NCBI GenBank assembly: GCA_903860135.1
Contig: CAIOPG010000017.1
Location: 139,364-203,363, forward strand
Source: Candidatus Omnitrophota bacterium
GTDB lineage: Bacteria > Omnitrophota > Gorgyraeia > Zapsychrales > Fredricksoniimonadaceae
Direction: 5' to 3'
Length of the DNA: 64,000 bases
Positions 16,496-57,306 of the stretch are shown here, piece after piece. The notes beneath the pieces are model-generated. The model searched no databases. It saw only the letters and a program-made list of their open reading frames with translations, and was not told the origin of the DNA. The translations under genes were made by a program, and so were the position numbers. Numbering within the stretch: position 1 is the stretch's first letter; each line of letters opens with the position of its first letter.

Positions 16496-16912
16496 TTAAG
16501 CGTCCCCGGCTGCGGTTGGCTGTCCTTCGGCCGTTGCTTCTTCGCCCGAAGGTGTTGCCTGACGCGCGCGGCCAGCTTCGAGCTCGTTGAACAACTGGGT
16601 CATGTGGACACCTTGCGCGATGGTATTATCATAAACAAATTTTACTTCAGGCACATGCCTCAAGGTGATCCGCTGTCCGAGCAAACGCCGCACCATACCC
16701 TTGGCTGAATCAAGCCCGCCCTGCACCCGGCGTATGGCATCCGGATCGTCGGACAAGACACTGAAGCCCACATGCGCCCAGCTCAAGTCCTTGCTGACAT
16801 CAACATAGGTGATGGTCACCCCGGTCACACGCGGGTCGCGGATCTCGCCGAGCAACATCATCTGGCTGATCTCACGCTTGATAAACTGATTGATCCTGTC
16901 CATACGTTCCAT
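16496..16912 (-). CDS. rbfA: Ribosome-binding factor A
   Basis: ORF-track ORF extends to 16978, but the RbfA-typical start MERMDRINQFIKREISQ...IRDPRV begins at 16910-16912 with GGAGA/AGGAG upstream. The 22 in-frame codons before it fall inside the 83-nt repeat (copy B). Confidence 0.8.
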   Translation of the reverse strand: MERMDRINQFIKREISQMMLLGEIRDPRVTGVTITYVDVSKDLSWAHVGFSVLSDDPDAIRRVQGGLDSAKGMVRRLLGQRITLRHVPEVKFVYDNTIAQGVHMTQLFNELEAGRARQATPSGEEATAEGQPTAAGDA

Positions 16913-16966
16913 AAAAGTCTCCTCTCCCGTATCTGACGGGCTATCCGCTAGAATGTCCACAAGCAT

Positions 16967-17049
16967 ACCAGAAGTCATACACCTTGGGAAGCGTCAAATC
17001 ACGGGCATGAGGAAATGATCATCGCGGATCCGATGACGCAGGTGTGATC
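16967..17049. repeat. ~83-nt intergenic repeat, copy B (paired with 12907-12989)
   Basis: See copy A. It begins at the stop codon of the 1030-aa modular protein and contains AAGGTGT-ATGACTTCTGGT (an SD plus ATG-ThrSerGly) on the minus strand. Confidence 0.7.
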
Positions 17050-20000
17050 GTCAAGAGGACTGGCTTGAAACCGGCAAACGAAGGCAAAAGGAAATCTTCA
17101 TTACCGACAACTTTTTCATCCGATGCCGCCTGGCTCCGGTCAACCGCCACCTCCATCCCGCTGGCATCAATACCACCGTATTTCTTCTGATCAGCAAGAC
17201 CCTTAGCATCTTTTTTCTGAAGCCTGTACACATGATATTCCCATGGCTGCAACGTCCATGTTCGTTCTTTGACCATATCCCTGAAAGACACTGGCGGCGC
17301 TTCGGGATGAAGAATATCGCTGAATTCCATCTGATCCTTTTCATCCTCGGTAAGATAATCCCACTGAAAATGCTGATTAATATAGGGAATTGTCTTCTCC
17401 GTACCGCTGTGATTCACGACAACAAGGCCAACCTCATAAGAACCGTCCTCATTCTGAATGCGGCGCTGATCAACCAAAACCCCTTCGGGAAGATCACGCT
17501 GATCACCAACCAAAGCCGGCCGCATTGTTCCGTTACACCATAATTTATCTGCCATCAAAGAAAATAAATTCTTATAAAATGATGTGAGTTCAGGGTATTC
17601 CAGCCACGTATCTTCTGCATCGGGTTGATTCAGTGCATCGGGCTTACCGTTGGTCTCGGCATGACGCCCCGTTTCAAACCCCTCATTGATCAGCGTGCCC
17701 CCGGAGAAATAGGCCATCAGCGCCGCATTGGCGGCCTTGGCACGTGCTATAAAACTTTTTAATACGCGCTCACTCAACAAAGCATTAATTTCATCTGGAT
17801 CATCACTAAAATCCTTGTGCAAGACAGCCTCAATCTCAGGGATGTCAGCATTAAGATAAAGATCTTGATCGTTTTCTCTTACATATCCCTGCTCGATCAA
17901 CGACCTCACAATAATGCCTCCCCTCAATGGCGCAGCCTCCGTAACAGCCTGCCAGCTGAAAGCCGTTGTTTCACGTATCTCATCAATGGTCCTTTTCCCA
18001 CGAATATCATCATGATTTTCGAGAAACTTTATAATACCCTGCATGTAAAAATCAGCCCCCTCAGACAACAACGAACCAAACATTCTGGAACTACGACGCA
18101 AAGATACAAAATGCTCCAAAGAAAGATGTTTGGCATAAACAAAATCAATCCCCAGCTTCAAAGCATATTCTTCATTCTCATACATTTCTGCAATAAAAAC
18201 AGAATCCGGATACTTTTTTTTCATTTCTCTAAAAAGATTCCTCCAAAAATCATCATTCATATCGCCATACTTTAATTCCCCCCAACTATTATTGAACCGG
18301 CCTGCCAAAGCCAGATGGAACATGTCAAAACGAATACCTCCACCGTTCGTCAACCGCATAATACGATCAATTAACGCCTCAATATATACCTGAGTTTCCG
18401 GCTTGGAAAAGTCAAAAGCCACCGTGTCCAGCCATGCCGCATAATAAGGATCCTTTTGATGCGCATAAATCCAGGATTTTCCATTTTTATCTTTATGCCA
18501 AAAGAAAAACCTGACAAATTCACTTTCCTGAAGATTCTTCCGAATCCCCCTGAAATAACTGCTCAAATTGGCGATCTCCGCTTCTGGTATTCTGCCTTCT
18601 TCAACCCGTATGAACAGCTCCGGATGTTCCTCCATCAATTTTCCCATGACACCGGCATGATTGGTCACAAGATCAACACACACTTTTATCCCATACTTGG
18701 CCGCACGTTCGACAAGCCTTTTAAAAGCCGCCTCGCCACCCAGGCTTGCCGCCACCGTATAATCATCGAGGCTATACGCGGAGGCCAGGCGCTGCTTTTG
18801 CCCAAAGATCTTAGCTGCCCATCCCTGATAATATCGGCTAAACTTGGATCGCTCCCATATGCCCATGGTCCACAACTCATTGATCCCCTTGTCTGCCAAC
18901 CCTTGAAGGTATTCATCCGTGATTTTGTCAAAACGCTTCGTAGGCCCGGCATGCCACAAATATATAACGGGGGCGTGCGTAAGCTTGACCGGCGCCACTT
19001 CCGCCGCCAGATCAACAACAGCCACGTCGGGAACTGCCGGCAATGGACCTGACACCACCGAAAAAACACCCGGTGTTAACATGCCAAAATCATTTACCCC
19101 GCCGGAAAAATACTTGCGCGGCAAAAGTTCGCCGGACACGGCATCCTTCTCTTCGCGGATGAGATTGACAGCACCTTTCTTATACGCGTCCACATACGTA
19201 TCATAAATCTTGCGCGGTTCCGCCTTGTCGGCGATAGCAACGCCCGCGAGCCTTGCCTTGTCCAGATAAGACCGGCGCCAGGGCGCGGCCCCTTTTTTCT
19301 GACGGTACCATTTGGCCAGGATCAGGGCCTGAAATATCTGCCGTAACCGGGCAAAGCGAGCGCCTTCATTAACCTCCCGCTCGATCACGGGCACAATGAC
19401 CTCGCGCATCACCTGAACAACAGCCTCCTGCCCCGCATTCAGGGCATGACTTCCCTCTGCCTGCGCGCGCGCCAGATAATCCTGTTCAAGCATGACCTTG
19501 AGGCGCGCCTCAACAACCACCCCGCTCAAGCCCTTCTCAACAACCCGCGCCCGCGCCGGAACGATCCACACCTTGTGAAAATCATCGGTCAATGCCCCCA
19601 CATTCACATCACGGTCTGAAACCGCGCGCAACCGTGCCCAAAACACACGGCCACTGGCGCTGTCAGGATGCAATAACGATGCCGTGAACTGTTTAAGGAT
19701 ATAATCCTGGGCCAGGAGATCGCGCCCCAGCTCGGTCATCCCCAGGGTTTTTGTCACGATGCGGTCGGATTCATACGGAGAAAGATTGACCCAGAATTCT
19801 TTTTCAGGAACGGCCAAGCCTGTCAGGAAATACCGCGCCTGCCGCGCAACATTTTCCCGCAAGTCAGCCTCCGGCGTTTGCCCCTTGTCGAGCATGAACA
19901 AAAGCTTGCGCGGCTGTTGCGGGTCGATCCGCAGTCCCTTGACCAGCGCCGGCGTATAGACACCCCCCGTCACAACCAGGGTGCCCGGCAACGGAAGATC

Positions 20001-20111
20001 TCTCAACGCCTGCGCCTCAGCCAAGATCGGTGTCAGTAAAAACACGACCGCCGTCAGTAAAGAACAAACGGCCTTGAAAGGAAATTTATGATGAAATAAA
20101 GGCACCATCAC
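17019..20111 (-). CDS. Secreted modular protein 1: conserved N-cap domain + GH13 alpha-amylase-family catalytic domain + conserved C-tail
   Basis: 1030 aa with a signal peptide (…LTPILAEAQA). The N-domain is shared with three paralogues (blocks WVNLSPYESDRI, GRDLLAQDYILKQFTASL, KVWIVP, LKVMLEQDY, PRKYFSGGV). GH13 conserved regions are present: DLVTNH, GIRFDMFH, IAEMYE, FLENHD. The C-tail is ...GGIDASG...AGFKPVLLTITP. Confidence 0.8.
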   Translation of the reverse strand: MMVPLFHHKFPFKAVCSLLTAVVFLLTPILAEAQALRDLPLPGTLVVTGGVYTPALVKGLRIDPQQPRKLLFMLDKGQTPEADLRENVARQARYFLTGLAVPEKEFWVNLSPYESDRIVTKTLGMTELGRDLLAQDYILKQFTASLLHPDSASGRVFWARLRAVSDRDVNVGALTDDFHKVWIVPARARVVEKGLSGVVVEARLKVMLEQDYLARAQAEGSHALNAGQEAVVQVMREVIVPVIEREVNEGARFARLRQIFQALILAKWYRQKKGAAPWRRSYLDKARLAGVAIADKAEPRKIYDTYVDAYKKGAVNLIREEKDAVSGELLPRKYFSGGVNDFGMLTPGVFSVVSGPLPAVPDVAVVDLAAEVAPVKLTHAPVIYLWHAGPTKRFDKITDEYLQGLADKGINELWTMGIWERSKFSRYYQGWAAKIFGQKQRLASAYSLDDYTVAASLGGEAAFKRLVERAAKYGIKVCVDLVTNHAGVMGKLMEEHPELFIRVEEGRIPEAEIANLSSYFRGIRKNLQESEFVRFFFWHKDKNGKSWIYAHQKDPYYAAWLDTVAFDFSKPETQVYIEALIDRIMRLTNGGGIRFDMFHLALAGRFNNSWGELKYGDMNDDFWRNLFREMKKKYPDSVFIAEMYENEEYALKLGIDFVYAKHLSLEHFVSLRRSSRMFGSLLSEGADFYMQGIIKFLENHDDIRGKRTIDEIRETTAFSWQAVTEAAPLRGGIIVRSLIEQGYVRENDQDLYLNADIPEIEAVLHKDFSDDPDEINALLSERVLKSFIARAKAANAALMAYFSGGTLINEGFETGRHAETNGKPDALNQPDAEDTWLEYPELTSFYKNLFSLMADKLWCNGTMRPALVGDQRDLPEGVLVDQRRIQNEDGSYEVGLVVVNHSGTEKTIPYINQHFQWDYLTEDEKDQMEFSDILHPEAPPVSFRDMVKERTWTLQPWEYHVYRLQKKDAKGLADQKKYGGIDASGMEVAVDRSQAASDEKVVGNEDFLLPSFAGFKPVLLTITPASSDPR

Positions 20112-20150
20112 GCGCTCCGTTTACATCGTAGAAATATCCATCCCCGTCAA

Positions 20151-23100
20151 TTATCGCACCAGCGCCGCCACGGACACCGGCACGATCTTCCCGATGCGCG
20201 GCTCAAAACCGCTCACGTCCAACTGCGCCCAAGGCTTGGCCGATACCGGTAACGGCACACCGTGGCTATCACGGCGGATCCTGAAATCCATGGTCGCTGT
20301 ATCAAGGGTGACACCACCGGGCGATGCCGCGGCGTCGGCCGACGTGCCCTCCAACGTATCGCCAGCAAACTTTCCAGTCTTTGGGGCGATCTCGTCAGCA
20401 AACGCCTCGCTGATGGTCGCCACCAGATCCGCCAGCTGGCCCTTGTTGATCAGCGGTAACGTGCCGTTCAATAATCCCGCCACAAGCTCAGGACGGGACA
20501 TATGGCTTTGATACTCAGCAAAAAGCCTGTCCCACAAAGGCCGGTATCTTTCTGTATAATAAACCCTGAAATCCCATAACCCGGTCTTCTTGAGCCTGGA
20601 CACGGTATCTGCATCCAGCTCACTTTCCAATAAATTGAAATTTACCAACGCGCCGAGAAAAGGCATGATCTTCTTTTCTCTCATGTCTTCATCAAGAACA
20701 ACCCGCGTGTAATCGATCTGCGTAGCGTGAAAAATCTTATCCAAACGGCTGGCAAGAGTATCCTGTGTTACAGGCGCCGCAGCCGATGCTTCCGGTATCA
20801 ATTGCCCAACGGCAGCGATCAGGCTTTGTGCCTGCTGAGGGACGGCAAGATAGCCTCCGTCACGTGCCGCATCACTCCTCGATAGAAAGATATAATCCTT
20901 GCCGTCGCTGTGTCGGTAAAGCACCGACAACATCCCCTGGCGCAGGTCAGCCTTGCGCACCCGGCCTTCACCAACCATGGTCGTCAGCAGACGGGCCATT
21001 TTCTGTTCCTGGGGACTGCCCTGGGCCAAAACAGCCAGCGCCAATTGTGCAGCCGGCGACGCCCTGCGCACCGGCTCACGCCGCTCGATCCAGTTGTCCG
21101 GAGCACGATGAGAATCCTTGATCCATTGCTTCAGACGCGACACAACACCCGCAAGATAATCCCTTGTCTGCTGGTAAGACCAATTCGTGCTCAACGAAGT
21201 ACCCGGCACATTATGCTGACTCTTGATGCCCACATCCCCGGATTCACCGTCAACGACATCCGCATAGTTAACCACCGTGGTATTGGCCATGGTGTTCATC
21301 AAGACCTTGTTCATGATCTCCGCGATATTGTCCTCTGTCAACTCCTCCGTAACCCCCAGCTCGCGTAAAATCTGAGCCAGCACCTTTTTACTGTTAGTCG
21401 AAAGGTTGCTGTCCCAAAGCCTTGTCGACGGATTGTCGTGGGGGGCAAGAAAAGCCATTTGGCTGGGCAACAAATTAGCCGGATGGTACGGATCACCGTT
21501 GAGCCGGTTTCTCCAGGAAGGATCCAGCGACATATACTGCAACACACTCATGCCTGGCAAAGGCAACTTGCGGAAGAACGCATCCGTCCGGGGTGTGCCT
21601 TCGCCGAGATTCTCGGCTATAAACACATCGGTCAGATCGACCTCGGGGAAAAGCTTCGCCAATTTGTCAAAGATGAGATACGGATCCAGGCCATCGTGAA
21701 TATCTCTCAAAAAATATCCCTGATCGGACGGCTTGTCCCTGGGGATAACAAAAGGATCCGCATACCCAAAGACATAATCCAGCCGAAACCGCGCCCCGGG
21801 CGACAAACGGAGGGCGTAAACGAACCTTTTAACATAAAAGTTGATCCCTTCTGCCTTGCTCAAATCCGGCGGTACATGGCCAAAGATGTCATTGCGTACG
21901 CCGGTACGCAGCGAGAACGTCCTATTTTCTGTATCATAAATGAAAACATCCGGATTCCCCCAGCAATCCGCGCTGTTAAACCGCGGATATATATTCAAAT
22001 CTTCGATAATCGGGACATGATGCTCTTGCGCAAAAGTATTCAGAGCCTCCGCCTGCTGACGTACAAGGAACTGAAAGAAATGGAAGAACCCAATTTTCTG
22101 TTGGTTCGCTATTTCAAAATCTTTCACACCAGAGGCATTAATATTAGATAGCTCATCCGGCCAGCGCGTCAAGGCCTGCTCAAATACAAGCTTGATCTTT
22201 GTCCAATTTTCATCTCCCAGGATGTTCTGCAATGCACCAAGCTTATCCCAAGATACTTTCAGCTGAACTTCGTTCAACTTGAGGGAATCAGCCATATTCA
22301 GATAGATCAGTTTTTCTGAAATATATTTCCAAATATCAGTAACACCCTCAACCTCGAGTCCGGCATGCTCAACCGAATACTGGTCAACAAGCCCCAGCCA
22401 GCCGTATTGGCTATACGTCTGGCTCAATACCTGAAACAAAGAATACGATCGCAACCAGTCCATACGTATGTCAACGCCGTCAACCGAGATAAGGCCTTCG
22501 GTATTTTCTTTGACGAATGTGTCAAACGCCTGCTGAAAAAGCGCCACCGGCCGACCGTTCGTCGGCCATACCCCGGTATTTTGCGCCTCCAGAAAATTTG
22601 CATACGCCTGACGGGCCAGTTGTTCCTTGTATCCCAGCCGATCAAAAGCAATCCGCAAAGAATGAATATCTTTAGGAACAATGACATCGTGTTGTTCCTG
22701 GGTTATAAACCCTTGCGCGACCAAGTCTTGCGGGCTAAGCAAGTTTCCGTTGAGCCCAAAGAGCCCATTACCATAATATGGATCGCCGTTATTATTCGTC
22801 CCCAGCAACGGTTCGCGTAGCCAGCCGGCACCTGCTTTTTCCAACCCCAGAATGAGGGCTCTCGCCTCCGGCCCAAGATCGCCCCCTCCGTACTCTCGCT
22901 GATCCGTCGATGCTACTGAGGGCAATGACGCAACCGGAACAAAAATCACCGTTCCGGGTACCTGCGCCTTAACGGCCGCCGCCGTCGCCTCGTTCGTCAT
23001 CGCCTTCGCCCCCGGCATCATCCTCGCCACCGATGCCGAAGGTTTTCTTTTTTCGGAGTTATCCGTCTGCGGCGCCTCCGCAAAATCCACCGCCACCGAT

Positions 23101-24254
23101 GCGCTCGCATCAGACCGTTGCGCAACACGCCCCGCAAAATCCTTTTTCTCCTTCTCCGTCGCCGGAGTCACAGCATTTACCGGCACCACTCCGCCCGACA
23201 CGTATTTCCGGGGCACCGACGCGCGACCCTGCGGATCGACCTCGTCTTTGATGTAGTTATAAACCCCGGCCTTGAAAGATGCCAGATACCGGTCATACAG
23301 CTTCTGGCGGATGGCGGGATCATCGACTTTGATCCCGGCGGCCTTGTTGCGGTCGACGTAGATCTTGCCGAGCACGCTGTCGCGCAGGGTTTTCTTGTAC
23401 CATACCGCGAGAATCATGGAATTGTAGATCTGGCGCAGGGTGGCAAAATTCTTGCCACTATTCACTTCCTTCTCGATGGCGGGGATCAGGATTTCGCGCA
23501 TGACCTGCTTGGCGAGCTCATCTTCCGGACGGGGCACAGACCCGTCCCTACCCACGCCGGCAACCTGCGCCGATTTATAATCTGATTCGAGCATGACTTT
23601 CAGGTGCTGTTCGACCACAAAGACCCTGTTGCCCTTCTCGTAGACAACCGCCTTGTCGGGCATGATCCAGACCTTGTTGAAGGTATCCAGCGGCAGGTCA
23701 GTCACCCCGGACTGTTCCTTCGCCTGGCTGTAAACCCTCTGCCAGAACGCCTTGCCCAGGTCATCTTCAGGATAGAATAATGATGCCGACAACTGCTTGA
23801 GGATATAGTCCTGCGCCAGCATATCGCGGCCCATGTCCGTCTGGCCAAGGCCTTCGCCGGTGATGCGATCCTTTTCATACGGCGACAGGTTCACCCACTG
23901 CTCTTTCTCGGGAACAGTTAAAGATGCCATGAAATATTTGACTAATTTCTCGGATTCCTGACGAAACGCATCACTGTCAAACGCAAGGCCGGAATCACCC
24001 TTATCAATGATAAAACTGAACTGAAGTGGCTTCTCAGGATGAACTTCCATGCCGATGGCCAAAGGAGGCACGTACGCCGGGGAAGGATGCACCATGACAC
24101 CCACCGGCGGCAAGCGTAAAGCCGCCAAGCCATCCGCCTGCGCCCAGGCCCTGTTGACAGGCATAAGGGTGTTGACCAGAAAGACAGCGGCTACAAAAGC
24201 CGCCACAGCACAACGCAGCCTAGAATGACGGACACAACAAAGCATCGAGGGCAT
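20151..24254 (-). CDS. Secreted modular protein 2: conserved N-cap domain + GH77 4-alpha-glucanotransferase (amylomaltase-like) domain + conserved C-tail
   Basis: 1367 aa with a signal peptide (…VNRAWAQA) and the same N-domain blocks (WVNLSPYEKDRI, GRDMLAQDYILKQLSASL, KVWIMP, LKVMLESDY, PRKYVSGGV). GH77 signatures are FFHFFQFLVRQQAEALNTFAQEHHVPIIEDL, RLDYVFGY, GMSVLQYMSLD, APHDNPSTRLW. The C-tail is ...GGVTLD...SGFEPRIGKIVPVSVAALV. Confidence 0.8.
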   Translation of the reverse strand: MPSMLCCVRHSRLRCAVAAFVAAVFLVNTLMPVNRAWAQADGLAALRLPPVGVMVHPSPAYVPPLAIGMEVHPEKPLQFSFIIDKGDSGLAFDSDAFRQESEKLVKYFMASLTVPEKEQWVNLSPYEKDRITGEGLGQTDMGRDMLAQDYILKQLSASLFYPEDDLGKAFWQRVYSQAKEQSGVTDLPLDTFNKVWIMPDKAVVYEKGNRVFVVEQHLKVMLESDYKSAQVAGVGRDGSVPRPEDELAKQVMREILIPAIEKEVNSGKNFATLRQIYNSMILAVWYKKTLRDSVLGKIYVDRNKAAGIKVDDPAIRQKLYDRYLASFKAGVYNYIKDEVDPQGRASVPRKYVSGGVVPVNAVTPATEKEKKDFAGRVAQRSDASASVAVDFAEAPQTDNSEKRKPSASVARMMPGAKAMTNEATAAAVKAQVPGTVIFVPVASLPSVASTDQREYGGGDLGPEARALILGLEKAGAGWLREPLLGTNNNGDPYYGNGLFGLNGNLLSPQDLVAQGFITQEQHDVIVPKDIHSLRIAFDRLGYKEQLARQAYANFLEAQNTGVWPTNGRPVALFQQAFDTFVKENTEGLISVDGVDIRMDWLRSYSLFQVLSQTYSQYGWLGLVDQYSVEHAGLEVEGVTDIWKYISEKLIYLNMADSLKLNEVQLKVSWDKLGALQNILGDENWTKIKLVFEQALTRWPDELSNINASGVKDFEIANQQKIGFFHFFQFLVRQQAEALNTFAQEHHVPIIEDLNIYPRFNSADCWGNPDVFIYDTENRTFSLRTGVRNDIFGHVPPDLSKAEGINFYVKRFVYALRLSPGARFRLDYVFGYADPFVIPRDKPSDQGYFLRDIHDGLDPYLIFDKLAKLFPEVDLTDVFIAENLGEGTPRTDAFFRKLPLPGMSVLQYMSLDPSWRNRLNGDPYHPANLLPSQMAFLAPHDNPSTRLWDSNLSTNSKKVLAQILRELGVTEELTEDNIAEIMNKVLMNTMANTTVVNYADVVDGESGDVGIKSQHNVPGTSLSTNWSYQQTRDYLAGVVSRLKQWIKDSHRAPDNWIERREPVRRASPAAQLALAVLAQGSPQEQKMARLLTTMVGEGRVRKADLRQGMLSVLYRHSDGKDYIFLSRSDAARDGGYLAVPQQAQSLIAAVGQLIPEASAAAPVTQDTLASRLDKIFHATQIDYTRVVLDEDMREKKIMPFLGALVNFNLLESELDADTVSRLKKTGLWDFRVYYTERYRPLWDRLFAEYQSHMSRPELVAGLLNGTLPLINKGQLADLVATISEAFADEIAPKTGKFAGDTLEGTSADAAASPGGVTLDTATMDFRIRRDSHGVPLPVSAKPWAQLDVSGFEPRIGKIVPVSVAALVR

Positions 24255-24412: not shown

Positions 24413-26395
24413 TCAAACACGTATCGGCAGAATAACAAACGGGATCCCGCTCTGGTAAAACTTGCGCTGCAGGGCGAATACGGTTTCATTGTGCAGCCAG
24501 CGGGTCCAGATCGTTTCTTTGGGGAATACCAGCTGTCCGCCGAAAATAACAGCCTGCGGGAACCGCTTGGAAATAACAGCGATCACCTTGCCCGCTTCTT
24601 CGAGGATATCCACCCCCATATGCGCCATACCCTCGGCGTAAAAACCCTGCTCGCTCATAAAACGGATATACCGTGCCAGATCCTTGTCCACCTTGGTTTG
24701 CAGGTTGACCACCTCGGCCGCACCTTTAAAATTCCCCGCGTCAATGATCCCGACCTGCACAAAAACAAAATTCCGGAACTCTTTGCCGAAAAAACGCCTG
24801 ATATTAAAAAGCGTGTGCAGGCCAAGCCCGTTAAACCCGCCCACCAGAATGACCGCGGTCCGTGCATGCGGATCAAAAGGCACCGGCTCAAGGGTCACCA
24901 CCGGCGTGATCGTTGTCGCATGGACAAGCGTGTTCAGCCGGTGCAGCATCTTGGCGACCTTGTAATAATGACGCTTGATGAAGATCGCCAGCCCCACCAG
25001 CGACCCGGTCACAAACAGGGTGATCCACCCGCCCTCATTAAATTTGATGAAAATAACTGAACACAGAATGAATGTGGTAAGCAACAAGCCGGCGCCACTG
25101 ACCACGATCCGCCGTTTCCAGTGATCAGCCCCCTGACGCTGACTCCACCAGTGAAAGACCATGCCCAGCTGGGACAAGAAGAACGTGATGAACACATTGA
25201 TGCTGTAAAAAATGATAAGGAGCTGAACCTTGCCATGGGCCAGCACCATGATCACAAGGGCCGCTCCACCCATAATAAGGATGCCATTCTGGGTGACCAG
25301 CCGGTCGCTCAGGTTGGCGAATTTCCCGGGGAACCAGCGGTCGATCGCCATGCTCGCCAAAACCCTCGGCCCGCCCAGAAAGCCGGTCTGCGCCGCCACA
25401 AACAGGATGAACGCTTCCGAAAGGAGCGTGGTGATCAAAAAGACAGGTCCCCATTGCCCCCAGTCCTGCGTTATGGCTTCAAACAGGACCGCGTTCAACG
25501 TCTTGCCATCGTGCGGCACAACCTGAAAAAGCAAATACGCGACCATCAAACCAAAAACCGTGAACGCCAGCGACCAGGCCATATAGCTCATGGTCCGCTT
25601 GCCCGTCGCGACTTTTGGCTCCCTTAAAATAGCAAGCCCATTGCTCACCGCCTCAATACCTGTATAGGTTCCCGCGCCAAGGCTATAGGAACGCAGCAAT
25701 AGAAGGATCATCCCGAACAGGCCGATCTGAGCCGATGCCGCCTTGGCCTCCGAAGCCGCCTGGGCCACCACCACAGGAAACTGCCCGGCATGGGTCACAA
25801 ACGCATAGACAATGATGAACGCATGTGTGACCAGAAAAACCACGAAGATCGGGATCAGCGGCCCCACCGTTTCCTTGACCCCGCGCATATTCAAGATCGT
25901 CAACAGCACGACCCCAAAGACCGCAACATAAATTTTGATGACCTGATATTCCGGTGGGATAAAGCTAAAGATGGCATCGGTCCCGCTGGCCACCGACAGG
26001 GCGATCGTCAAAACATAATCAATGATGAGCGCACAGCCGGATATCATCCCGACGGTAGGATTGAGCAATTTGCTCGCGACCAGATAACCGCCGCCGCCCG
26101 ACGGAAAAAGCTCGATGATCTGTGAATAGCTCGCGCTGATGAGAAAAACCGTCCCCACCGTAGCGAGCGCCACGAACACACTCAAATAGGTATGCCCCTG
26201 CAAGGCTACAAACGCCGCTTCGGGGCCGTAACACGACGATGAAAGCCCGTCCGCCCCAAGGCCGATCCAGGCCAGGAACGCGATCAGGGATAATTGATGA
26301 AAAACCTCACGGTCCAACGGGCTTTTAGCCTGCCCGATAAGAATATTCTTGATCTGTTTCAGCCATGACGTCATAGCTTTGTCTCCACGCGCCAA
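24413..26395 (-). CDS. APC-superfamily amino-acid permease with extended cytoplasmic C-terminal domain
   Basis: 660 aa. The first ~440 aa are polytopic with APC-type glycine-rich TM helices (FPSGGGGYL...), followed by a ~200-aa soluble C-domain. Confidence 0.65.
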   Translation of the reverse strand: MARGDKAMTSWLKQIKNILIGQAKSPLDREVFHQLSLIAFLAWIGLGADGLSSSCYGPEAAFVALQGHTYLSVFVALATVGTVFLISASYSQIIELFPSGGGGYLVASKLLNPTVGMISGCALIIDYVLTIALSVASGTDAIFSFIPPEYQVIKIYVAVFGVVLLTILNMRGVKETVGPLIPIFVVFLVTHAFIIVYAFVTHAGQFPVVVAQAASEAKAASAQIGLFGMILLLLRSYSLGAGTYTGIEAVSNGLAILREPKVATGKRTMSYMAWSLAFTVFGLMVAYLLFQVVPHDGKTLNAVLFEAITQDWGQWGPVFLITTLLSEAFILFVAAQTGFLGGPRVLASMAIDRWFPGKFANLSDRLVTQNGILIMGGAALVIMVLAHGKVQLLIIFYSINVFITFFLSQLGMVFHWWSQRQGADHWKRRIVVSGAGLLLTTFILCSVIFIKFNEGGWITLFVTGSLVGLAIFIKRHYYKVAKMLHRLNTLVHATTITPVVTLEPVPFDPHARTAVILVGGFNGLGLHTLFNIRRFFGKEFRNFVFVQVGIIDAGNFKGAAEVVNLQTKVDKDLARYIRFMSEQGFYAEGMAHMGVDILEEAGKVIAVISKRFPQAVIFGGQLVFPKETIWTRWLHNETVFALQRKFYQSGIPFVILPIRV

Positions 26396-50140: not shown

Positions 50141-51513
50141 ACCACCTTTCCTGGGTCAACTGCGTTTATATCATCAGCTGTATCCTGTTCGCGTTCGGTT
50201 TAAAACTCCTCGGCTCTCCTGAAACCGCGCGCCGCGGCAACTGGATGTCGGCCCTGGGCATGCTGCTCGCCGTGATCGCGACACTCACCGCGCGCGAGAT
50301 CATTTCTTTCCAGTGGATATTGATCGGCGGGGTGATCGGCGCTTCGTTGGGAACGCTCGTGGCCTTGCGCGCCAGCATGACCCAAATGCCTGAAATGGTG
50401 GCCCTCCTGCACGGCTTTGGCGCGCTCGCCAGTGTATTTGTCGACTGGAGCGCGTATCACAACCATACGCCGGACAATGCGGTGGTCATCACGGCGATCT
50501 ACCTGTCGATCCTCATCGGCGGGGTGACTTTTACCGGCAGTCTGGTTGCCTGGGGCAAACTCAGCGAACGCTTGCCCGGAAAGCCGCTCCTTTTTCCCGG
50601 CCAGCAGATGATCAGCATCCTTACAGCCGCGGCCATTGCACTTCTGGCGATCCCTTTTTTCCTGACTCCTGCGGCTTACCCGGTATTCCTGTGGATCCTG
50701 GGGTTGTCACTCATCCTGGGTGTTCTCTTGGTGATTCCCATCGGCGGGGCGGATATGCCGGTGGTGATCTCGGTCCTTAACAGCTATTCCGGGCTTGTGG
50801 CCTGCACCACGGGCTTTGTCATCAACAATGTCCTGTTGATCGTCGTTGGCGCACTCGTCGGGGCCAACGGGATCATCCTCAGTTACATCATGTGCAAGGC
50901 CATGAACCGCTCGCTCAACAATGTGCTTTTCGGCGCCTTTGCCCCGCGTGTCAAGAAAGCCGCCGGCACGGCCAAGGGCGAGGTCAAACCCATCAGTCCC
51001 CAGGATGCTTTCCTTATCCTTGAATCCGCGCGTTCGGTCGTTATTGCCCCTGGTTATGGCATGGCGGTTGCCCAGGCGCAACACGCCGTGCGTGAACTCG
51101 GAGAGCTCCTGGAAAAGAATGGTGCTGATGTGAAATACGCCATTCATCCGGTCGCCGGGCGCATGCCCGGCCACATGAACGTCCTTTTGGCCGAGGCCAA
51201 TGTCCCTTATGATCAGCTCGTTGAAATGGAACACATCAATCCGCTGATGGACAATGTTGATGTCGCCATCGTGATCGGCGCCAATGACACCGTCAACCCG
51301 GCGGCCATCCACGACAAGACATCCCCCATCTACGGCATGCCCATCATTGAAACGTTCCGGGCCAAGACCGTCTTTGTGATCAAACGCTCGATGGCCTCAG
51401 GCTTTGCGGGCATCGAGAATGAATTATTCCTCTATGACAACACCCGCATGATCTTTGGCGACGCCAAAGATGTGGCGCAGAAACTTGTGGCGGAGTTCAA
51501 GGCGGGGAACTGA
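50137..51513 (+). CDS. pntB: NAD(P) transhydrogenase beta subunit
   Basis: 458 aa, a membrane domain plus a C-terminal NADP(H)-binding dIII; 4-nt overlap with pntAB. Confidence 0.9.
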   Translation: MNHLSWVNCVYIISCILFAFGLKLLGSPETARRGNWMSALGMLLAVIATLTAREIISFQWILIGGVIGASLGTLVALRASMTQMPEMVALLHGFGALASVFVDWSAYHNHTPDNAVVITAIYLSILIGGVTFTGSLVAWGKLSERLPGKPLLFPGQQMISILTAAAIALLAIPFFLTPAAYPVFLWILGLSLILGVLLVIPIGGADMPVVISVLNSYSGLVACTTGFVINNVLLIVVGALVGANGIILSYIMCKAMNRSLNNVLFGAFAPRVKKAAGTAKGEVKPISPQDAFLILESARSVVIAPGYGMAVAQAQHAVRELGELLEKNGADVKYAIHPVAGRMPGHMNVLLAEANVPYDQLVEMEHINPLMDNVDVAIVIGANDTVNPAAIHDKTSPIYGMPIIETFRAKTVFVIKRSMASGFAGIENELFLYDNTRMIFGDAKDVAQKLVAEFKAGN

Positions 51514-54500
51514 CCGGCAGGGCCGCAGCAACTCCATTTTGCCCGATCAGCGCGGCAAGATTGGTCACCGGCTGCATATCCATGATCACAGGATCCAGGC
51601 CGGGAATAGACCCGTCAGGCAGCGGACCGCGATAGGCCGGAAATCGGATACGGACATCATCCCCGCCGGTGCGCAACGCGGTATTACGCGGATTAAGGTC
51701 AATACCGCCTTTATCAGGTGACTGTAGCGAACTTTCATTCGAAACCGACCGGGCAGAATAATCCTTTTCTGTCCCCTGGATCAAACCAAGTTCACGTCCC
51801 AGTTCAATGATATGCTCCGCCATATAGATCTTCCGAAGATAATGCCGCTGTGTCGCTGAATGTTCCGGAGAAATCCACACGCTTAGATCATCATAGCCAT
51901 CTTCATCCATCCCAACAAAACCCTGACTCACATAATGCTTACCTAAGGCATAAGCCATATGTGTTATGCCGCCTTCAACCGTTCCAACAATATCGGCCGC
52001 TTCCATTAAATAAAGTATGCCTCGTTCATGCGGCTGTGGCACAGGCGATACCATGACAAAACTCAAGTATTGCTCAGGAATAAAATGTAAGATAGATTTT
52101 TCATCTTCAGAACGGTTAAATCCCAACCACCCTATACGATTCATATTAGGCATAAGAATGACAAAGAATCCCGAATCAATCAACTGTTGAACTTGCTTAG
52201 CACCGTAACGATACCCGTATTCCGACAAACCTTTTGTTTCTAACTCTCCACCAAACAGATTCAAAAATACAACTGGTCTTCGTTCGATATTCTTATCGGT
52301 CAATGTGGCCAAGAGGCTTCTTTTGTAATGAGCCTCAGAACCTGAAACTGTCGTCATATAATGACCATCTACCACCCGGTTGTTACCGGCCCCGTATGAA
52401 ATACCAAGCCGATCCAAAAGATCAAACGCAGGCGCATATTGATTACCACTATTAATTGGGTCCAACACATCATTCCTCACATGGATAACATCGTACTCTT
52501 TGTGTCCATAGGCGTAGGGAGAATGGATATAAATAGCGGGGGGTTGTCTCTTGAGAACATCCTGGAACGCCTGTTCCGCCTTCTGTGAAAGAATTTTTCC
52601 ATCAGCATCATAACGGTGAATAATCATGTCAGATTTCTCAGCGTCAAACAAAGGAGGAAATGTTAGCTGTATTCGCGGATGATTATATATCTCCGTCCGC
52701 TTCGTATAAATGTATATCTCGAGTTCCGGGTTATATTCCAACAGCGCTTGAACGAGTGATCCATTGCGTATGATCTCATCTCCTATACCTTCATCCAAAT
52801 TATGGACAAACAGTACCTTTTTCTTGCCGATCTTAAGAATTGCCTCAACTTTCTTATGAACATCCACCTTCTCTTTTTCACCGACATCCGGTTCTTTGGC
52901 ATCAATCAAAGGGATAAGTTTTTCAAGGTTTTGTCGAAAATCATCTAAAGATATATCCTTATATATGTTATTTCTGATCAGCAAATCCCAAAACCTGTCA
53001 ACCCGTCCATGAACACGTGAACTCATCTCAGCAAAGATCTTCAACTGCTCAAGCGATAGTGACGCCCCATGAAACCCAATCAATCCTCCTAACTGATAAT
53101 AGATAAAGCTATGCGGCGAATGATCCAAATTAAGCAGGATCGTCTTGATTACAGGCCAATATTCAAAGAAACTATCGCCGTAATGCTCCTTTAACCGATT
53201 AAAACCACTGTTCATTAAAAACCCCATTTTGGTCGCATTCGACTCCTTAAAAAGAAGCTTAAAAATGTCTCCTATCTCATCAATAAACATGTCACCAAAA
53301 TCTTTCTTAACTTCAAGTAAGAGCTTATAATATCTGCCAGGACTCTTGCTCGCCGACAGAATCCCAAATTCTTTCAAATCATCCCAATATCGCGGCAATT
53401 GATCACCAAACACATCAACGGCAATCTCCCATATTCCCCAAAAGTCGCGACCCGGATCACTTTCGGCCGCCATGGCCCAATACATAGCTTCCAATTCATC
53501 CAAGATGCGGCGCACGTCTTCACGGGAATGAATTAAATACGGTTTTAATGTTTTTAATGAAGCTAATGCCCACCCAGCACCATTATTACGTTCGCGGGCG
53601 AACCCTATCGAGCTTTGAATCAGCTTGAGCCCCAATTCAGGGAAATACTCAAGGTATTCCTCATGGGAATAACCATCAAACGGCATCCCGCCATTGGTCG
53701 TAAAGAATGGCTCTCCCCATTGGAGTACGGTAGCAACAGTATCAACCACCTCATAACCGTAACGATTTAAAATATCTTCTATCAACTGTTTTTTATCATC
53801 CGGTAGTTCTTTATATAACGCTTGGGCATAAAATTCATTCTTAAAAGCGGTCTCAGTTCTGTTATTAACACCCCGTTTAGCCCGTAACGCCAATATTATT
53901 TCCTCTGCCGTCATAGATACCGGAACGCCTCCCAAGCCATCGATAAAGCGGTACTTTTTCATGGCAGAATCATTTTTCTTCTTTCCATCTTTCCTGAGCG
54001 ATCCTGACTTCTTACCCGCGATAACGGATGCCTGAACCGCAATCTTGGTAGCTCTTGCCGCCTTCGCCGCGACATCCCCCGGCGTTTGTGATTCATCGAT
54101 CCGCCCATACTTCTCCACCACACCACCGGAAAAATATTTGCGCGGGATCACGGTTTGGGAGACATCATCGTAATCTTCTTTGATAAAGTTATAAACGCCC
54201 CGTTTAAACGCCTCCAGGTACTGTTGATAAATCTTCTGGTTGATCTGCTTATCCTGGGTATCAACTCCTGCGGTCCTGTTGTGATCGATGTAAATATCCT
54301 GCAGGACACTACCAGCCACATGGCGCTTGTACCAGGTGGCGAGGATCACGGCGTTGGATATCTGGCGCAGACGCGCAAACGACTTGCCGGTATTGACCTC
54401 CCGCTCGATCTCGGGAATGATAACCTCACGGATAATTTCTTTGGCGATATCGCTCAGCGGCGTCAGATCCTCCGCGCGTGTCTCCCCCAGCCCGTGCCGG

Positions 54501-55213
54501 GTGTGGCCCTGATTGGCCGCCAACGCCAGATAATCATTTTCCAGCATCACCTTATGGTGACTCCCGGTCACAAAGACCGATGTCCCGCTGACATAGACCG
54601 ACGCCCTGTCCGGGATGATCCAGACCTTGTGAAAAGTATCCATCGGGATCTCGTTGGTCCCGTAACGCTGCCGCGTTTTATCCCTCACCCGTTTCCAGAA
54701 CGCACGCCCCAAATCTTTCTCGGGATACATCAGGCTGGCTGTCAATTGCTTGAGAAGATAATCCTGCGCCAAAAGGTCCCGCCCTATTTCGGTTGCGCCA
54801 AACCCCGGCGGAATGATGCGGTCTTTTTCGTAAGGGCTGAGATTAACCCACATCTCATCTTCGGGCACCGTCATGGCCGCAAAGAAATATTTGATCAGGT
54901 GGTTGGATTCATCCCGAAGACTTTCTTCTTTGAGATTATCATCCCCTGGATGCACCATGAAATCAAACCGGAACGGATCTTCAGGATACACGGTCATCCC
55001 GATCATCAGGGCAGGATCATAGGCAGGGGTTAAACCAACCATCGCGCCAGGCGGCGGTAAGCCAAGGAGCGTTCCACCCGCCGGCCCAACCTGTTGCGCC
55101 TGCGCCTGGGATAAACCCAATGGAAGAACCGACTGACCGACAAAGGCGATCAAAACCGCCAAAAGCAGTGTTTTCTTAAGGAAGAAATATTTTTTAAAAT
55201 GAAAATGATGCAT
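51497..55213 (-). CDS. Secreted modular protein 3: conserved N-cap domain + ~500-aa unassigned helical region + GT9-like glycosyltransferase domain + conserved C-tail
   Basis: 1238 aa with a signal peptide (…LSQAQAQQ) and the N-domain blocks (WVNLSPYEKDRI, GRDLLAQDYLLKQLTASL, KVWIIP, KVMLENDY, PRKYFSGGV). The GT9-like features are ...KVLFVHNLDEGIGDEII... and ...MEAADIVGTVEGGITHMAYALGKHYV.... The C-tail is ...GGIDLNP...DPVIMDMQPVTNLAALIGQ. Confidence 0.8.
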   Translation of the reverse strand: MHHFHFKKYFFLKKTLLLAVLIAFVGQSVLPLGLSQAQAQQVGPAGGTLLGLPPPGAMVGLTPAYDPALMIGMTVYPEDPFRFDFMVHPGDDNLKEESLRDESNHLIKYFFAAMTVPEDEMWVNLSPYEKDRIIPPGFGATEIGRDLLAQDYLLKQLTASLMYPEKDLGRAFWKRVRDKTRQRYGTNEIPMDTFHKVWIIPDRASVYVSGTSVFVTGSHHKVMLENDYLALAANQGHTRHGLGETRAEDLTPLSDIAKEIIREVIIPEIEREVNTGKSFARLRQISNAVILATWYKRHVAGSVLQDIYIDHNRTAGVDTQDKQINQKIYQQYLEAFKRGVYNFIKEDYDDVSQTVIPRKYFSGGVVEKYGRIDESQTPGDVAAKAARATKIAVQASVIAGKKSGSLRKDGKKKNDSAMKKYRFIDGLGGVPVSMTAEEIILALRAKRGVNNRTETAFKNEFYAQALYKELPDDKKQLIEDILNRYGYEVVDTVATVLQWGEPFFTTNGGMPFDGYSHEEYLEYFPELGLKLIQSSIGFARERNNGAGWALASLKTLKPYLIHSREDVRRILDELEAMYWAMAAESDPGRDFWGIWEIAVDVFGDQLPRYWDDLKEFGILSASKSPGRYYKLLLEVKKDFGDMFIDEIGDIFKLLFKESNATKMGFLMNSGFNRLKEHYGDSFFEYWPVIKTILLNLDHSPHSFIYYQLGGLIGFHGASLSLEQLKIFAEMSSRVHGRVDRFWDLLIRNNIYKDISLDDFRQNLEKLIPLIDAKEPDVGEKEKVDVHKKVEAILKIGKKKVLFVHNLDEGIGDEIIRNGSLVQALLEYNPELEIYIYTKRTEIYNHPRIQLTFPPLFDAEKSDMIIHRYDADGKILSQKAEQAFQDVLKRQPPAIYIHSPYAYGHKEYDVIHVRNDVLDPINSGNQYAPAFDLLDRLGISYGAGNNRVVDGHYMTTVSGSEAHYKRSLLATLTDKNIERRPVVFLNLFGGELETKGLSEYGYRYGAKQVQQLIDSGFFVILMPNMNRIGWLGFNRSEDEKSILHFIPEQYLSFVMVSPVPQPHERGILYLMEAADIVGTVEGGITHMAYALGKHYVSQGFVGMDEDGYDDLSVWISPEHSATQRHYLRKIYMAEHIIELGRELGLIQGTEKDYSARSVSNESSLQSPDKGGIDLNPRNTALRTGGDDVRIRFPAYRGPLPDGSIPGLDPVIMDMQPVTNLAALIGQNGVAAALPVSSPP

Positions 55214-55215
55214 CG

Positions 55216-57306
55216 CTAACCGCCTCGTGCCGTAACAGGTGCGATGCCCAGAAAGTTGGGCAGATCATTCATGGGCTGAATGTCGATGATAACCGGCGCC
55301 ACCCCGGCTGAGCCCCGATATTTCTCCAGCATCGCCGGGTCAAAATGAAAGAATGTCCCTGCATCAGAAGCATCCACCTGCATGACCTGAGCGACAGGGT
55401 TCAAATCAATACCGCCTGAATCATTTGACGACTTGTCCGCCATCTTCCGATTAATCTTATCCAGTTCACCTGGGACCTTGTTCTTTAAATCTTCAGGTCC
55501 ATCAACCAATACTGTCTGCATACCAACCTTCTGGGCAGGTACTGTATCTTTTTGACTTGCTCCGATCGACACAAAAGCTTCAGCTGGGAAAGGAACTTTC
55601 GCTTGAATCTTCCGATAAAAATCAAGGGCAGGCTTCCCAACCCCCATATTCTCCTGGGTAAATATAAAATCAAAAATCTCCTCAAGCCCAAGCGCCTTTA
55701 AGACACGCGCCACATGAGCGTCGCTGGCATTAGACCCAAGCACAAGATAATACGACTGTTTCAATCCTTTCAATAAAGCAATCATGTCTTGTTCCGGTTT
55801 CAACAAACCTTCCACGTCAATCTCATCCACCTTGGCGTTAAACGCAGAACTGTTCAGGTTGAATGCCCGGACAACCCCGCTTAAAGATTGATTATTATTC
55901 TCATCAAAATAGGCGTTCTTCACTTCTTTTGCTGAATATTCAGCGGCCTTGGAAAGCTTGAGCAAAATCCGATATTTCCGACCCCACACCTTGCTTGAAT
56001 GATAAAGAGTATCCCCCAGATCAAAGATCAGCACTTTTACAGGCATCTTGCTGCGAGGTTCCAGGCTTGAATTGTCTTTAATAGAAGATGGTTTTTTCTC
56101 TTTAGGAATATTATTTACCCTGACACTCATCAAGACTTGCTTGCGCACAGGAAGCCCTGCCGCATCAAACGCATTGACCATACTCATATCACCAGGATAA
56201 ATATTAACACCCCCCGCAAAATACTTCCGGGGGATCGTTGCCTCGGTGGCGGGGTCGTATTCTTCGCGGATAAGGTTATACGCGCCTTTCTTGAATGACG
56301 CGACGTAGCGTGACCATATCTTTGCGGACTCTTTCGGGTCATCGATATTGACACCGGCGACTTTATTCTGGCCGACGTAGAAGCCGAGCGGGGATTGGTG
56401 GATCGCGCCCATGACTTTCTTTTTGTACCAGGCGGCCAGGATCAGGGAGTTGTAGACCTGCCGGAGCTGGGCGAAGTTTTGGCCTTCGTTGACTTCTTTT
56501 TCAAGGACAGGGAGGATGATGGTGCGGATGAGGGCTTGGGCAAGGTCTTCCCCCCGTCCATCCCCTTCCCACGAGGGGGAGGGTGACGTTGGAGACGCTG
56601 TATTATTCTTCGCGGCCAGATAATCGGATTCGAGCATGACCTTCAGGCGGGATTCGACCACGTAGGCGACGGCTTCTTCGGGGCGATGGTTGCCGGCAGG
56701 CTTGGGTTTTTCGTAAACCTTAGCCACAGCTGGAACGATCCAGACTTTATTGAACGTATCAATGGGGATATCGGTTGTCCCGAACTTCGCCTGGGCCTGT
56801 TTGTAGATCTCATCCCAGAACTTCTTGCCCAGGCTATCCTCAGGGTACATCAAACTGGCGGTGATCTGTTTCAACAGATAATCCTGCGCCAGAAGGTCGC
56901 GCCCCATTTCGGTCTGGCCAAAAGCTTCGGGCACAATGCGGTCTTTTTCATACGGGCTGAGATTCACCCAGAGGTCCTTTTCAGGCACCGTGAGCGCGGC
57001 GAGGAAATATTTTATCAGGCGAAGGGCATCATCCCCCGTCCCTTCCCCTTTATCCAGAATAAAATCAAACCGAAAAGGATCCCCCGCATAAACCTTGACG
57101 CCGGTAAGGGTGGTCGGATGAAAAACAGGGCTCAACCCCACCCTGGCTCCCGGCACCGGCAATCCCAACACCTCTTGTGCCGACACCTGCCCCAACGGAA
57201 ATGCCATGACATTCAACAAAAATGCCACCAGCATGACCCAGGGAACAATCCGCTGTCTCAGTGTTTTATTACGCTTTAAAGCCACATGATCTTCCCGATG
57301 GTTCAA
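55216..57306 (-). CDS. Secreted modular protein 4: conserved N-cap domain + HAD-superfamily phosphatase domain + conserved C-tail
   Basis: 696 aa with a signal peptide (…GQVSAQE) and the N-domain blocks (WVNLSPYEKDRI, GRDLLAQDYLLKQITASL, KVWIVP, LKVMLESDY, PRKYFAGGV). HAD motif I is FDLGDTL, with later GKP/D motifs. The C-tail is ...GGIDLNP...APVIIDIQPMNDLPNFLGI. Confidence 0.8.
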   Translation of the reverse strand: MNHREDHVALKRNKTLRQRIVPWVMLVAFLLNVMAFPLGQVSAQEVLGLPVPGARVGLSPVFHPTTLTGVKVYAGDPFRFDFILDKGEGTGDDALRLIKYFLAALTVPEKDLWVNLSPYEKDRIVPEAFGQTEMGRDLLAQDYLLKQITASLMYPEDSLGKKFWDEIYKQAQAKFGTTDIPIDTFNKVWIVPAVAKVYEKPKPAGNHRPEEAVAYVVESRLKVMLESDYLAAKNNTASPTSPSPSWEGDGRGEDLAQALIRTIILPVLEKEVNEGQNFAQLRQVYNSLILAAWYKKKVMGAIHQSPLGFYVGQNKVAGVNIDDPKESAKIWSRYVASFKKGAYNLIREEYDPATEATIPRKYFAGGVNIYPGDMSMVNAFDAAGLPVRKQVLMSVRVNNIPKEKKPSSIKDNSSLEPRSKMPVKVLIFDLGDTLYHSSKVWGRKYRILLKLSKAAEYSAKEVKNAYFDENNNQSLSGVVRAFNLNSSAFNAKVDEIDVEGLLKPEQDMIALLKGLKQSYYLVLGSNASDAHVARVLKALGLEEIFDFIFTQENMGVGKPALDFYRKIQAKVPFPAEAFVSIGASQKDTVPAQKVGMQTVLVDGPEDLKNKVPGELDKINRKMADKSSNDSGGIDLNPVAQVMQVDASDAGTFFHFDPAMLEKYRGSAGVAPVIIDIQPMNDLPNFLGIAPVTARGG

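Follow-up and report, generated by a model that had tools for sequence, protein, structure and literature searches.

An Omnitrophota-specific family of putatively exported proteins with a conserved N-terminal domain and C-terminal tail around interchangeable enzymes

The DNA analysed here is a 64,000-nucleotide (nt) stretch of contig CAIOPG010000017.1 from a Candidatus Omnitrophota bacterium (assembly GCA_903860135.1); we call the whole stretch the window, and all coordinates are positions in it. It contains four genes, A to D, whose products share a five-part architecture: a Sec-type signal peptide, an N-terminal domain of about 330 amino acids (aa) that we call the head, a linker rich in the motif D-x-A-M, an interchangeable cargo, and a C-terminal tail of about 60 aa. 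The family to which they belong is specific to Omnitrophota and massively expanded there, and the pairing of head and tail is near-obligate. We propose, with a rough probability of 45%, that these are modular exported proteins in which head and tail take the cargo beyond the Sec step, out to the surface or into a host or prey cell. We found no description of such a family in the literature searched, and the Omnitrophota papers mention neither the head nor the tail in the text searched. The family is apparently undescribed, and its layout is in our view a new kind of protein architecture.

The four genes are as follows.

17019-20111, minus strand: gene A, 1030 aa, as in the list of open reading frames (ORFs).
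20151-24254, minus strand: gene B, 1367 aa, upstream of A and 39 nt apart from it.
51497-55213, minus strand: gene C, 1238 aa, as in the ORF list.
55216-57306, minus strand: gene D, 696 aa, upstream of C and 2 nt apart from it.

They form two tandem pairs, with D/C located 27 kb from B/A. ORF starts were set at the first ATG, GTG or TTG, so the start codon of D, for which TTG is assumed, is uncertain. The original prediction, made from the sequence of this stretch, had called the proteins of the B/A pair giant, which overstates a range of 696-1367 aa; family members elsewhere reach at least 4,969 aa.

Homology among the heads is strong. By TBLASTN, the domain common to A-D aligns over about 310-330 residues at E-values from 1e-76 to 1e-112, with 1e-76 to 1e-82 for the matches of A to B, C and D. 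We also scanned the 606 six-frame ORFs of the window with profile hidden Markov models (HMMs) of the family head and tail that were built without any sequence from the window. The head HMM gave 344-479 bits on A-D and matched no other ORF.

19095..20006, minus strand: head of A, aa ~36-339, ending in PRKYFSGGV; 343.8 bits, E = 2.5e-104.
23187..24140, minus strand: head of B; 468.4 bits, E = 3e-142.
54119..55096, minus strand: head of C; 478.9 bits, E = 1.9e-145.
56206..57177, minus strand: head of D, the sequence used for structure modelling.

The conservation that had been predicted for the N-terminal domain thus survives proper alignment, at a lower level than the 50-60% identity first suggested for A and B. 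Protein identity among the heads is 42-53% overall: 42-43% for A vs B, and 48-53% among B, C and D. The DNA that encodes the four heads is 65-74% identical and its longest exact match is 16 nt, values that rule out cassette swapping or gene conversion among the window paralogues. Because DNA identity is this low while the protein is kept, the genes are old paralogues under purifying selection and not the products of recent duplication, and the selection on the head has been strong and long-term. The domain ends in an invariant ...RKYFSGG, and its alignment has invariant polar and aromatic residues at E76, R79, R92, D93, D98, Y99, K102, Q103, K143, E227, R238 and Q239 (domain numbering). None of its invariant residues is His or Cys, and we recognise no catalytic constellation in it.

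As the original prediction anticipated, the head falls in no family that we could find. It has no match in Pfam or NCBIfam, none among the sequences of the PDB (searched with phmmer and with a 104-sequence profile), and none in a comparison of folds. From its model, we expect the head to be an alpha/beta domain of new fold, which would make it a new domain family for Pfam.

The tail starts at a GG that is invariant across the family and has the consensus GGIDLxxxxMxLQxxxxGxxIKFxxDPAMLxQLQNAPGFxPVIINIQPxxxLxxFLG, running from ...PVIINIQPxxxLxxFLG into a polar extension without a terminal hydrophobic helix. A second subtype, GGIDFxxSNLDLQIKRDGxGVPLPxxQQxLxNIxIDGLxPVI..., is also common in the family and resembles the tail of B. 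The tails in the window, with E-values from the tail HMM built without window sequences, are these.

17022..17189, minus strand: divergent tail of A, YGGIDA...GFKPVLLTITP, a match at the level of motifs only.
20154..20330, minus strand: tail of B, a 'type 2' variant, GGVTL...FRIRRDSHGVPLPV...GFEPRIGKIVP, E = 1.1e-6.
51500..51721, minus strand: tail of C, GGIDLNP...GLDPVIMDMQPVTNLAALIG, E = 1.5e-11.
55219..55428, minus strand: tail of D, 'type 1', GGIDLNP...FFHFDPAMLEKYRGSAGVAPVIIDIQPMNDLPNFLG, E = 4.8e-23.

The tails of C and D also match each other directly (BLAST E = 1e-7). The conserved C-terminal tail predicted for A and B is therefore supported by profile for B, as it is for C and D, and stands for A at the level of motifs: GGID, then 36 aa, then GFKPVLLTITP, with the spacing seen in the family. 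A score is reached by the tail of A (E = 5.4e-6) only when its own sequence is included in the HMM. An orthologue of A with the same GH13 (glycoside hydrolase family 13) cargo in another metagenome-assembled genome (MAG; locus L049, 6952-9910) has the same divergent tail. We considered an internal homology between tail and head and rejected it (hhalign probability 0.6%).

Searches beyond the window, which the original prediction had called for, returned thousands of further members. The head matches at least 1,334 clusters at 90% identity, and nearly all of the named ones come from MAGs of Candidatus Omnitrophota or Omnitrophica, where they are called 'hypothetical'. Our sample of relatives consists of the best 80 of at least 581 confirmed loci, with one genome per GTDB species; these MAGs are labelled Omnitrophota or Omnitrophica, Candidatus Omnitrophus, Candidatus Elulimicrobium, or 'uncultured Planctomycetales', the last of which we take to be a placeholder. 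Several loci can occur within one genome, and there are genomes with many paralogues. Two members carry other labels at NCBI, P0077 (Minisyncoccia) and P0094 (Heimdallarchaeota); their contigs measure 1-2 kb, and both are probably pieces of Omnitrophota DNA that were binned wrongly. For the tail, an exhaustive HMMER profile search of 1.84 billion representative proteins (50% identity clusters) gave 6,469 matches at E <= 1e-3, including 4,148 at E <= 1e-10. Among the 150 best, the proteins are 78 to 4,969 aa long and the tail lies a median of 19 residues from the C-terminus, being more than 40 residues away in 17 of 136 matches (maximum 1,865). In a few proteins, such as P0242 and P0299 (two stretches), the tail is internal or duplicated, possibly because neighbouring family genes have fused.

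Head and tail are almost always found together. The 80 loci contain 110 head matches, frequently arranged in tandem with two to five at a locus, and 72 ORFs have both head and tail, with 256 to 2,800 aa between them. Essentially every head ORF that is complete at its 3' end closes with the tail; where it is missing, either the contig stops short or a frameshift or in-frame stop interrupts the gene. From the opposite direction, 58 of the 76 tail-bearing proteins of at least 450 aa among the matches listed contain a head. The smallest member, P0029 (438 aa), consists of a leader, a head, a linker of about 25 aa and a tail, with no cargo at all. This near-constant co-occurrence, together with P0029, indicates that head and tail are a coupled pair and that the cargo is an insert between them, which bears out the earlier proposal of conserved caps around interchangeable cargo.

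Some family genes appear in databases only as fragments. A 153-aa protein annotated at NCBI as 'J domain-containing protein' (P0230; locus L081, 5255-8459, JADFZK010000032.1) is the 3' end of an uninterrupted ORF of 1,068 codons that encodes a leader, an N-terminal cap, a cargo including the J domain, and a tail, and whose first 2.7 kb has no gene call. An idea that we had entertained, of a leaderless J-domain protein whose tail is recognised in the cytoplasm, was dropped once this ORF had been traced; the notion of stand-alone tails had arisen from a search with a profile of 79 tails that returned only proteins of at most 179 aa. In-frame stops split other family genes at L082 (TAA, 2738-2741), L042 (TAG, 18664-18667) and L045 (TAG, 12308-12311), and in each the frame continues to the tail part; these could be pseudogenes, assembly errors or cases of stop-codon read-through.

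All four window proteins begin, by inspection, with an n-region, an h-region and an AXA pattern, in line with the signal peptides first predicted for A and B (a slash marks the predicted cleavage site).

20013..20111, minus strand: leader of A, aa 1-33, basic n-region, hydrophobic core AVCSLLTAVVFLLTPIL, AEA/QA; predicted Sec signal peptide.
24141..24254, minus strand: leader of B, aa 1-38, AWA/QA; predicted Sec signal peptide, by inspection.
55097..55213, minus strand: leader of C, aa 1-39, SQAQA/Q (SQA/QA pattern), by inspection.
57178..57306, minus strand: leader of D, aa 1-43, VSA/QE, with the TTG start assumed.

Across the family, 79 of 97 leaders have an AXA-like site and the uncharged core has a median length of 20 residues. 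Export by the Tat pathway, which would permit folded, cofactor-bearing cargo, was rejected, since only 3 of the 97 leaders are twin-Arg-like. The leader sequence is unusually conserved (...[IL][IL]xAFLxNxxGPxPxAQAQ[DE]F.LPxPG), a hint that a more specific factor than the general Sec pathway recognises it.

The borders of the cargo are also marked. D-x-[AS]-M occurs in 56 of 91 linkers after the head, often twice, compared with a mean of 3.2 in shuffled sequences and with 21 of 827 windows from the interior of cargo. In 17 of 68 members it is found again within the 42 residues that precede the tail, mostly no more than a few residues from GGIDL. Window protein D has GDMSM (56190-56205) and C has NDSAM (about 53960-53975); the strict motif is absent from A, from B and from the cargo-less P0029. 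D-x-A-M and the invariant GG at the end of the head and at the start of the tail may thus be signals of the cargo border, and possibly processing sites.

Between these borders the window proteins carry different cargo.

17985..18821, minus strand: cargo of A, GH13 alpha-amylase-family domain, aa 431-709; PF00128, E = 9.8e-11, 42 bits vs a cutoff of 22.
21165..22178, minus strand: cargo of B, core of a GH77 4-alpha-glucanotransferase; PF02446, E = 8.3e-44, 150.7 bits vs a cutoff of 25.
51722..54118, minus strand: linker (with NDSAM) and ~770-aa cargo of C; no family match.
55504..56031, minus strand: cargo of D, HAD-superfamily hydrolase; PF13419 (HAD_2), E = 9.3e-16, 58.9 bits vs a cutoff of 23.8.

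Pfam matches in the four proteins were listed to E <= 0.1 and NCBIfam matches to E <= 1. The GH13 and GH77 cores predicted for A and B are both recovered above their cutoffs, and their catalytic motifs are intact. The cargo of A has conserved regions I-IV with the catalytic Asp/Glu/Asp (DLVTNH / GIRFDMFH / IAEMYE / FLENHD), the His of region II being one position off the canonical GFRLDAAKH; it reaches the cutoff of no NCBIfam equivalog and is 31% identical to the cargo of its L049 orthologue. The GH77 domain of B probably starts near aa 455 (GGGDLGPEA..., ~nt 22890) and has an insertion inside it. Its motifs RLDYVFGY, IAENLGE and APHDNP are the counterparts of RIDHFRG, IAEDLG and THDN in Thermus amylomaltase. 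The MalQ equivalogs (TIGR00217 / PRK14508) stay below cutoff, at 55.7 vs 205.65 bits for TIGR00217 and 145.4 vs 477 for NF011080, and the cargo of B is a divergent GH77 with insertions and not a standard MalQ. The original prediction was right that the caps recur on the D/C pair, and its expectation of non-glucan enzymes there is verified for D only. The cargo of D also matches PF00702 (44.3 bits vs a cutoff of 26.4); its motif I is FDLGDTLY, that is, D-L-G-D-T and not DxDx[TV], with the second Asp displaced by one. Its score against the pyrimidine 5'-nucleotidase model TIGR01993 is 68.3 bits, below the cutoff of 142.9, and it is 85% identical to the cargo of P0001. For the cargo of C we found no match in Pfam, NCBIfam or PDB; it is 27% identical to the cargo of another member (L023, 9874-13330).

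The repertoire elsewhere in the family is very broad. Cargo length ranges from about 0 to over 4,500 aa, and 61 cargo regions from other genomes contain 63 Pfam families, including S-adenosylmethionine (SAM) methyltransferases, HEAT and TPR repeats, Glu/Leu/Phe/Val and alanine dehydrogenases, radical SAM, PPDK_N, GNAT, histidine phosphatase, HAD, alpha-amylase, Fic and AvrB_AvrC domains, and in one member a J domain. Fic, AvrB and J domains typically belong to proteins working within the cytoplasm of another cell. Much of the cargo depends on NAD(P), SAM, ATP, Fe-S clusters or an Hsp70 partner, and so on a cytoplasm. The 4,828-aa metagenomic representative P0297 combines isocitrate lyase, triosephosphate isomerase, class II aldolase, malate synthase and GAPDH on one chain. 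According to a 2026 preprint on 176 complete Omnitrophota genomes (10.64898/2026.06.07.730766), stand-alone GAPDH is present in 176/176, isocitrate lyase and malate synthase are undetected as KEGG Orthology (KO) entries, and the glyoxylate shunt is absent from all 176 by KO search. Given stand-alone GAPDH everywhere and no KO detection of the other two enzymes, the copies in the cargo look extra and divergent.

That the family is Omnitrophota-specific, hugely expanded and loaded mostly with cytoplasm-type cargo shifts its likeliest meaning towards export or delivery to another cell. The proteins would first be exported by Sec, through the signal peptide ...AFLxNxxGPxPxAQAQ followed by D or E. 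Head and tail would then act jointly as a carrier that brings the cargo to the surface of the cell or, as the nature of the cargo makes more likely, into a host or prey cell, and cleavage at the Gly-Gly and D-x-A-M borders might release it. B (GH77) and A (GH13) would form a pair that dismantles alpha-glucan (glycogen or maltodextrin) outside the producer's cytoplasm, and the substrates of D (HAD) there would be small phosphorylated or halogenated molecules. Most Omnitrophota are ultra-small and depend on a host (PMC10066038), and in their giant proteins signal peptides are followed by metabolic domains of the same kinds (10.1101/2023.11.21.568195; 10.64898/2026.06.07.730766). A bolder version, which we hold to be doubtful, is an 'outsourced metabolism' in which the carrier, as a hitherto unrecognised system of protein delivery, would take dozens of cytoplasm-type enzymes per genome across the envelope of the predator and into the cytoplasm of an attached host or prey. 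Released there at Gly-Gly and D-x-A-M, the enzymes would turn the reserves of the host into metabolites for import by the ultra-small bacterium. The enzymes named under it are glycogen-degrading, glycolytic and glyoxylate enzymes, dehydrogenases, methyltransferases, Fic/AvrB-type modifiers and a J-domain co-chaperone.

Several points weigh against delivery by head and tail. The genomic surroundings offer no machinery: there is no recurrent neighbour gene family at the 80 loci (the most frequent cluster is present at 7 of 80 and is housekeeping-like), the transporter or sortase-like gene that the original prediction hoped to see alongside was not found, nor any other secretion or sorting gene linked to the family, among the neighbours of the 80 loci or in the window, and the window itself is an ordinary housekeeping stretch of chromosome. 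Whatever handles the family proteins is encoded elsewhere or is general. The statistics have soft spots: the 80 loci of the coupling count were chosen through the N-terminal domain itself, the tail HMM built without window sequences does not detect the tail of A, which leaves that tail without statistical support, and 18 of the 76 long tail-bearing representatives have no detectable head. One of these 18, of 1,289 aa, was traced, and a head-bearing ORF precedes it with a single in-frame TAA between. AlphaFold2 docking of head and tail, run with alignment rows for the head only, gave a pLDDT (predicted local distance difference test) of 63.6, with the tail below about 60 and no confident contact. 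Leaders were called by inspection of the n-region, h-region and AXA pattern rather than by a trained predictor, and the localisation, secretion and processing proposed for all members are deduced from sequence. Radical SAM and NAD- or ATP-dependent enzymes that leave through Sec would be useful only in another cytoplasm, and entry into it is a step that we infer. The same applies to the role in targeting, anchoring or assembly, or in catalysis or binding, that was first suggested for the caps.

The strongest competitor, which we still think unlikely, is a display scaffold at the surface or in the periplasm, with the head anchored in peptidoglycan, outer membrane or a surface coat, the tail serving for assembly or outer-membrane transit, and the enzymes working outside the producer. 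Sec-type leaders suit this idea, the extreme conservation of the head fits binding of an invariant envelope component, GH13 and GH77 enzymes could act on extracellular alpha-glucans, and the literature on giant proteins favours surface-exposed, cell-wall-targeting roles (10.1101/2023.11.21.568195). It is harder to reconcile with the many cargo enzymes whose needs for NAD(P), SAM, ATP, Fe-S clusters or an Hsp70 partner are not met outside a cytoplasm, and no LysM, SLH, OmpA, PEP-CTERM or type IX secretion system (T9SS) C-terminal domain (CTD) was matched in the window proteins by Pfam or NCBIfam.

Cytoplasm-type cargo would also be accounted for if the N-terminus were an uncleaved membrane anchor, head and tail a single fold with the cargo as an inserted loop, and the proteins the producer's own enzymes tethered at the inner membrane face. 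Head and tail are almost never apart and are joined by only ~25 aa in P0029, and topology classes with a cytoplasmic bulk have been proposed for many long Omnitrophota proteins (10.64898/2026.06.07.730766). Basic N-termini, short to medium h-regions and AXA sites predict the opposite, an N-in/C-out orientation or cleavage and not C-in; separate housekeeping copies of the enzymes, such as the GAPDH of 176/176 genomes in that preprint, make the cargo copies extra and divergent; and AlphaFold2 saw no confident head-tail contact, a weak test given its head-only alignment rows. We consider this tether improbable. Least probable of all is a catalytic head, a self-processing peptidase acting at the Gly-Gly and D-x-A-M borders or a transferase acting on cargo or target, which would be compatible with the other readings and finds encouragement in the many invariant polar and aromatic residues and the enriched, perhaps cleavable border motifs, and which the lack of invariant His or Cys and of a recognisable catalytic constellation, and the absence of the border motifs from P0029, A and B, speak against. 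On that reading an active site, and no role in transport, would account for the conservation of the head.

The rest of the window, as annotated by Pfam, contains the dcw cluster, ribF-truB-nrnA-rbfA, serS, ilvBN, sodA, xseA, nhaB, H+-PPase and pntAB, together with suf genes that were assigned by inspection of their translations. The genes for RbfA, an NrnA-like DHH phosphoesterase, TruB and RibF lie directly downstream of A on the same strand after a 40-nt gap (16496-16978, 14842-16492), and the glucan-enzyme genes A and B occupy the place where infB is usually expected upstream of rbfA. Directly upstream of B on the same strand is an amino-acid permease (24413-26395; AA_permease_2, aa 63-463) with an extra C-terminal region of ~190 aa that has no Pfam match. 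The 505-aa ORF at 31101-32618 has a spore-photoproduct-lyase-like radical SAM domain (PF20903), which is unexpected in a non-sporulating candidate phylum.

Omnitrophota are abundant and uncultivated and are thought to live on or prey upon other microbes, and how they act on their hosts has so far been discussed mainly through giant genes. Compact and highly conserved, head and tail would assign thousands of proteins of ordinary size to a single pathway, and so offer a tractable handle on the interaction with the host; the list of cargo resembles an inventory of the cell's exports, with possible processing motifs at its borders. As a delivery device, the pair would represent a new principle of protein translocation and a natural means of transporting enzymes of any kind; as an anchor or scaffold, it would define the composition of the Omnitrophota surface. 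Recognition of head and tail would in either case correct mis-called genes such as the 153-aa 'J domain-containing protein'.

In design the family comes closest to T9SS cargo and to MARTX toxins, but it lacks defining features of either, and also those of autotransporters, of type I secretion (RTX) proteins and of the CTERM sorting signals. The type V autotransporter barrel, about 250-300 aa at the C-terminus, has no Pfam match in A-D, whose conserved C-terminal unit is only ~60 aa. Signals for exosortase, archaeosortase or rhombosortase (PEP-CTERM, GlyGly-CTERM) have no NCBIfam match in A-D, and the tails lack the terminal hydrophobic helix. T9SS cargo proteins of Bacteroidota are closer in layout, with a Sec signal peptide, variable domains, a small conserved C-terminal domain and dozens of paralogues per genome. 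They differ in having no conserved 330-aa N-terminal domain, and their cargo consists of classical extracellular enzymes and not of NAD-, SAM- or ATP-dependent cytoplasmic types. T9SS CTD and Por_Secre_tail models (Pfam, NCBIfam) have no match in A-D, and T9SS is not known from Omnitrophota.

Polymorphic toxins (Rhs, CdiA, LXG, MIX/FIX) resemble the family in their conserved N-terminal module, highly variable enzymatic modules, many paralogues and tandem arrays. Their variable module sits at the C-terminus, with an immunity gene after it, whereas in the present family the cargo precedes a conserved tail and is for the most part metabolic and not toxic, and no conserved small immunity-like gene was found downstream at the 80 loci. 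MARTX toxins of Vibrio and its relatives have conserved N- and C-terminal regions around a variable array of effectors, some of Fic type, that are released by proteolysis after delivery into the target cell, and they offer the best functional analogy for a delivery device built as cap, cargo and tail. They differ in having glycine-rich repeats, a cysteine protease domain and a type I secretion signal, and no Sec leader; RTX, HemolysinCabind and CPD models (Pfam, NCBIfam) have no match in A-D, which have Sec-type leaders instead, and there is no relationship in sequence or fold to the MARTX family.

The giant proteins of Omnitrophota itself, the 'Archaeovorins' and multi-enzyme giants, come from the same phylum and have signal peptides and divergent methyltransferase, HAD, radical SAM, GNAT, HEAT, TPR and sugar-metabolism domains on one chain (10.1101/2023.11.21.568195; 10.64898/2026.06.07.730766). 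Their reported lengths are 10,000 to 147,000 aa, and they contain numerous transmembrane helices as well as SecA-like domains, whereas A-D are 696-1367 aa long and do not show the Archaeovorin-type combination of more than 30,000 aa, many transmembrane helices, a SecA-like domain, and arrays of glycosyl transferases or hydrolases with peptidases. Going by domain repertoire and signal peptides, the giant Omnitrophota proteins are the nearest biological relatives of the family.

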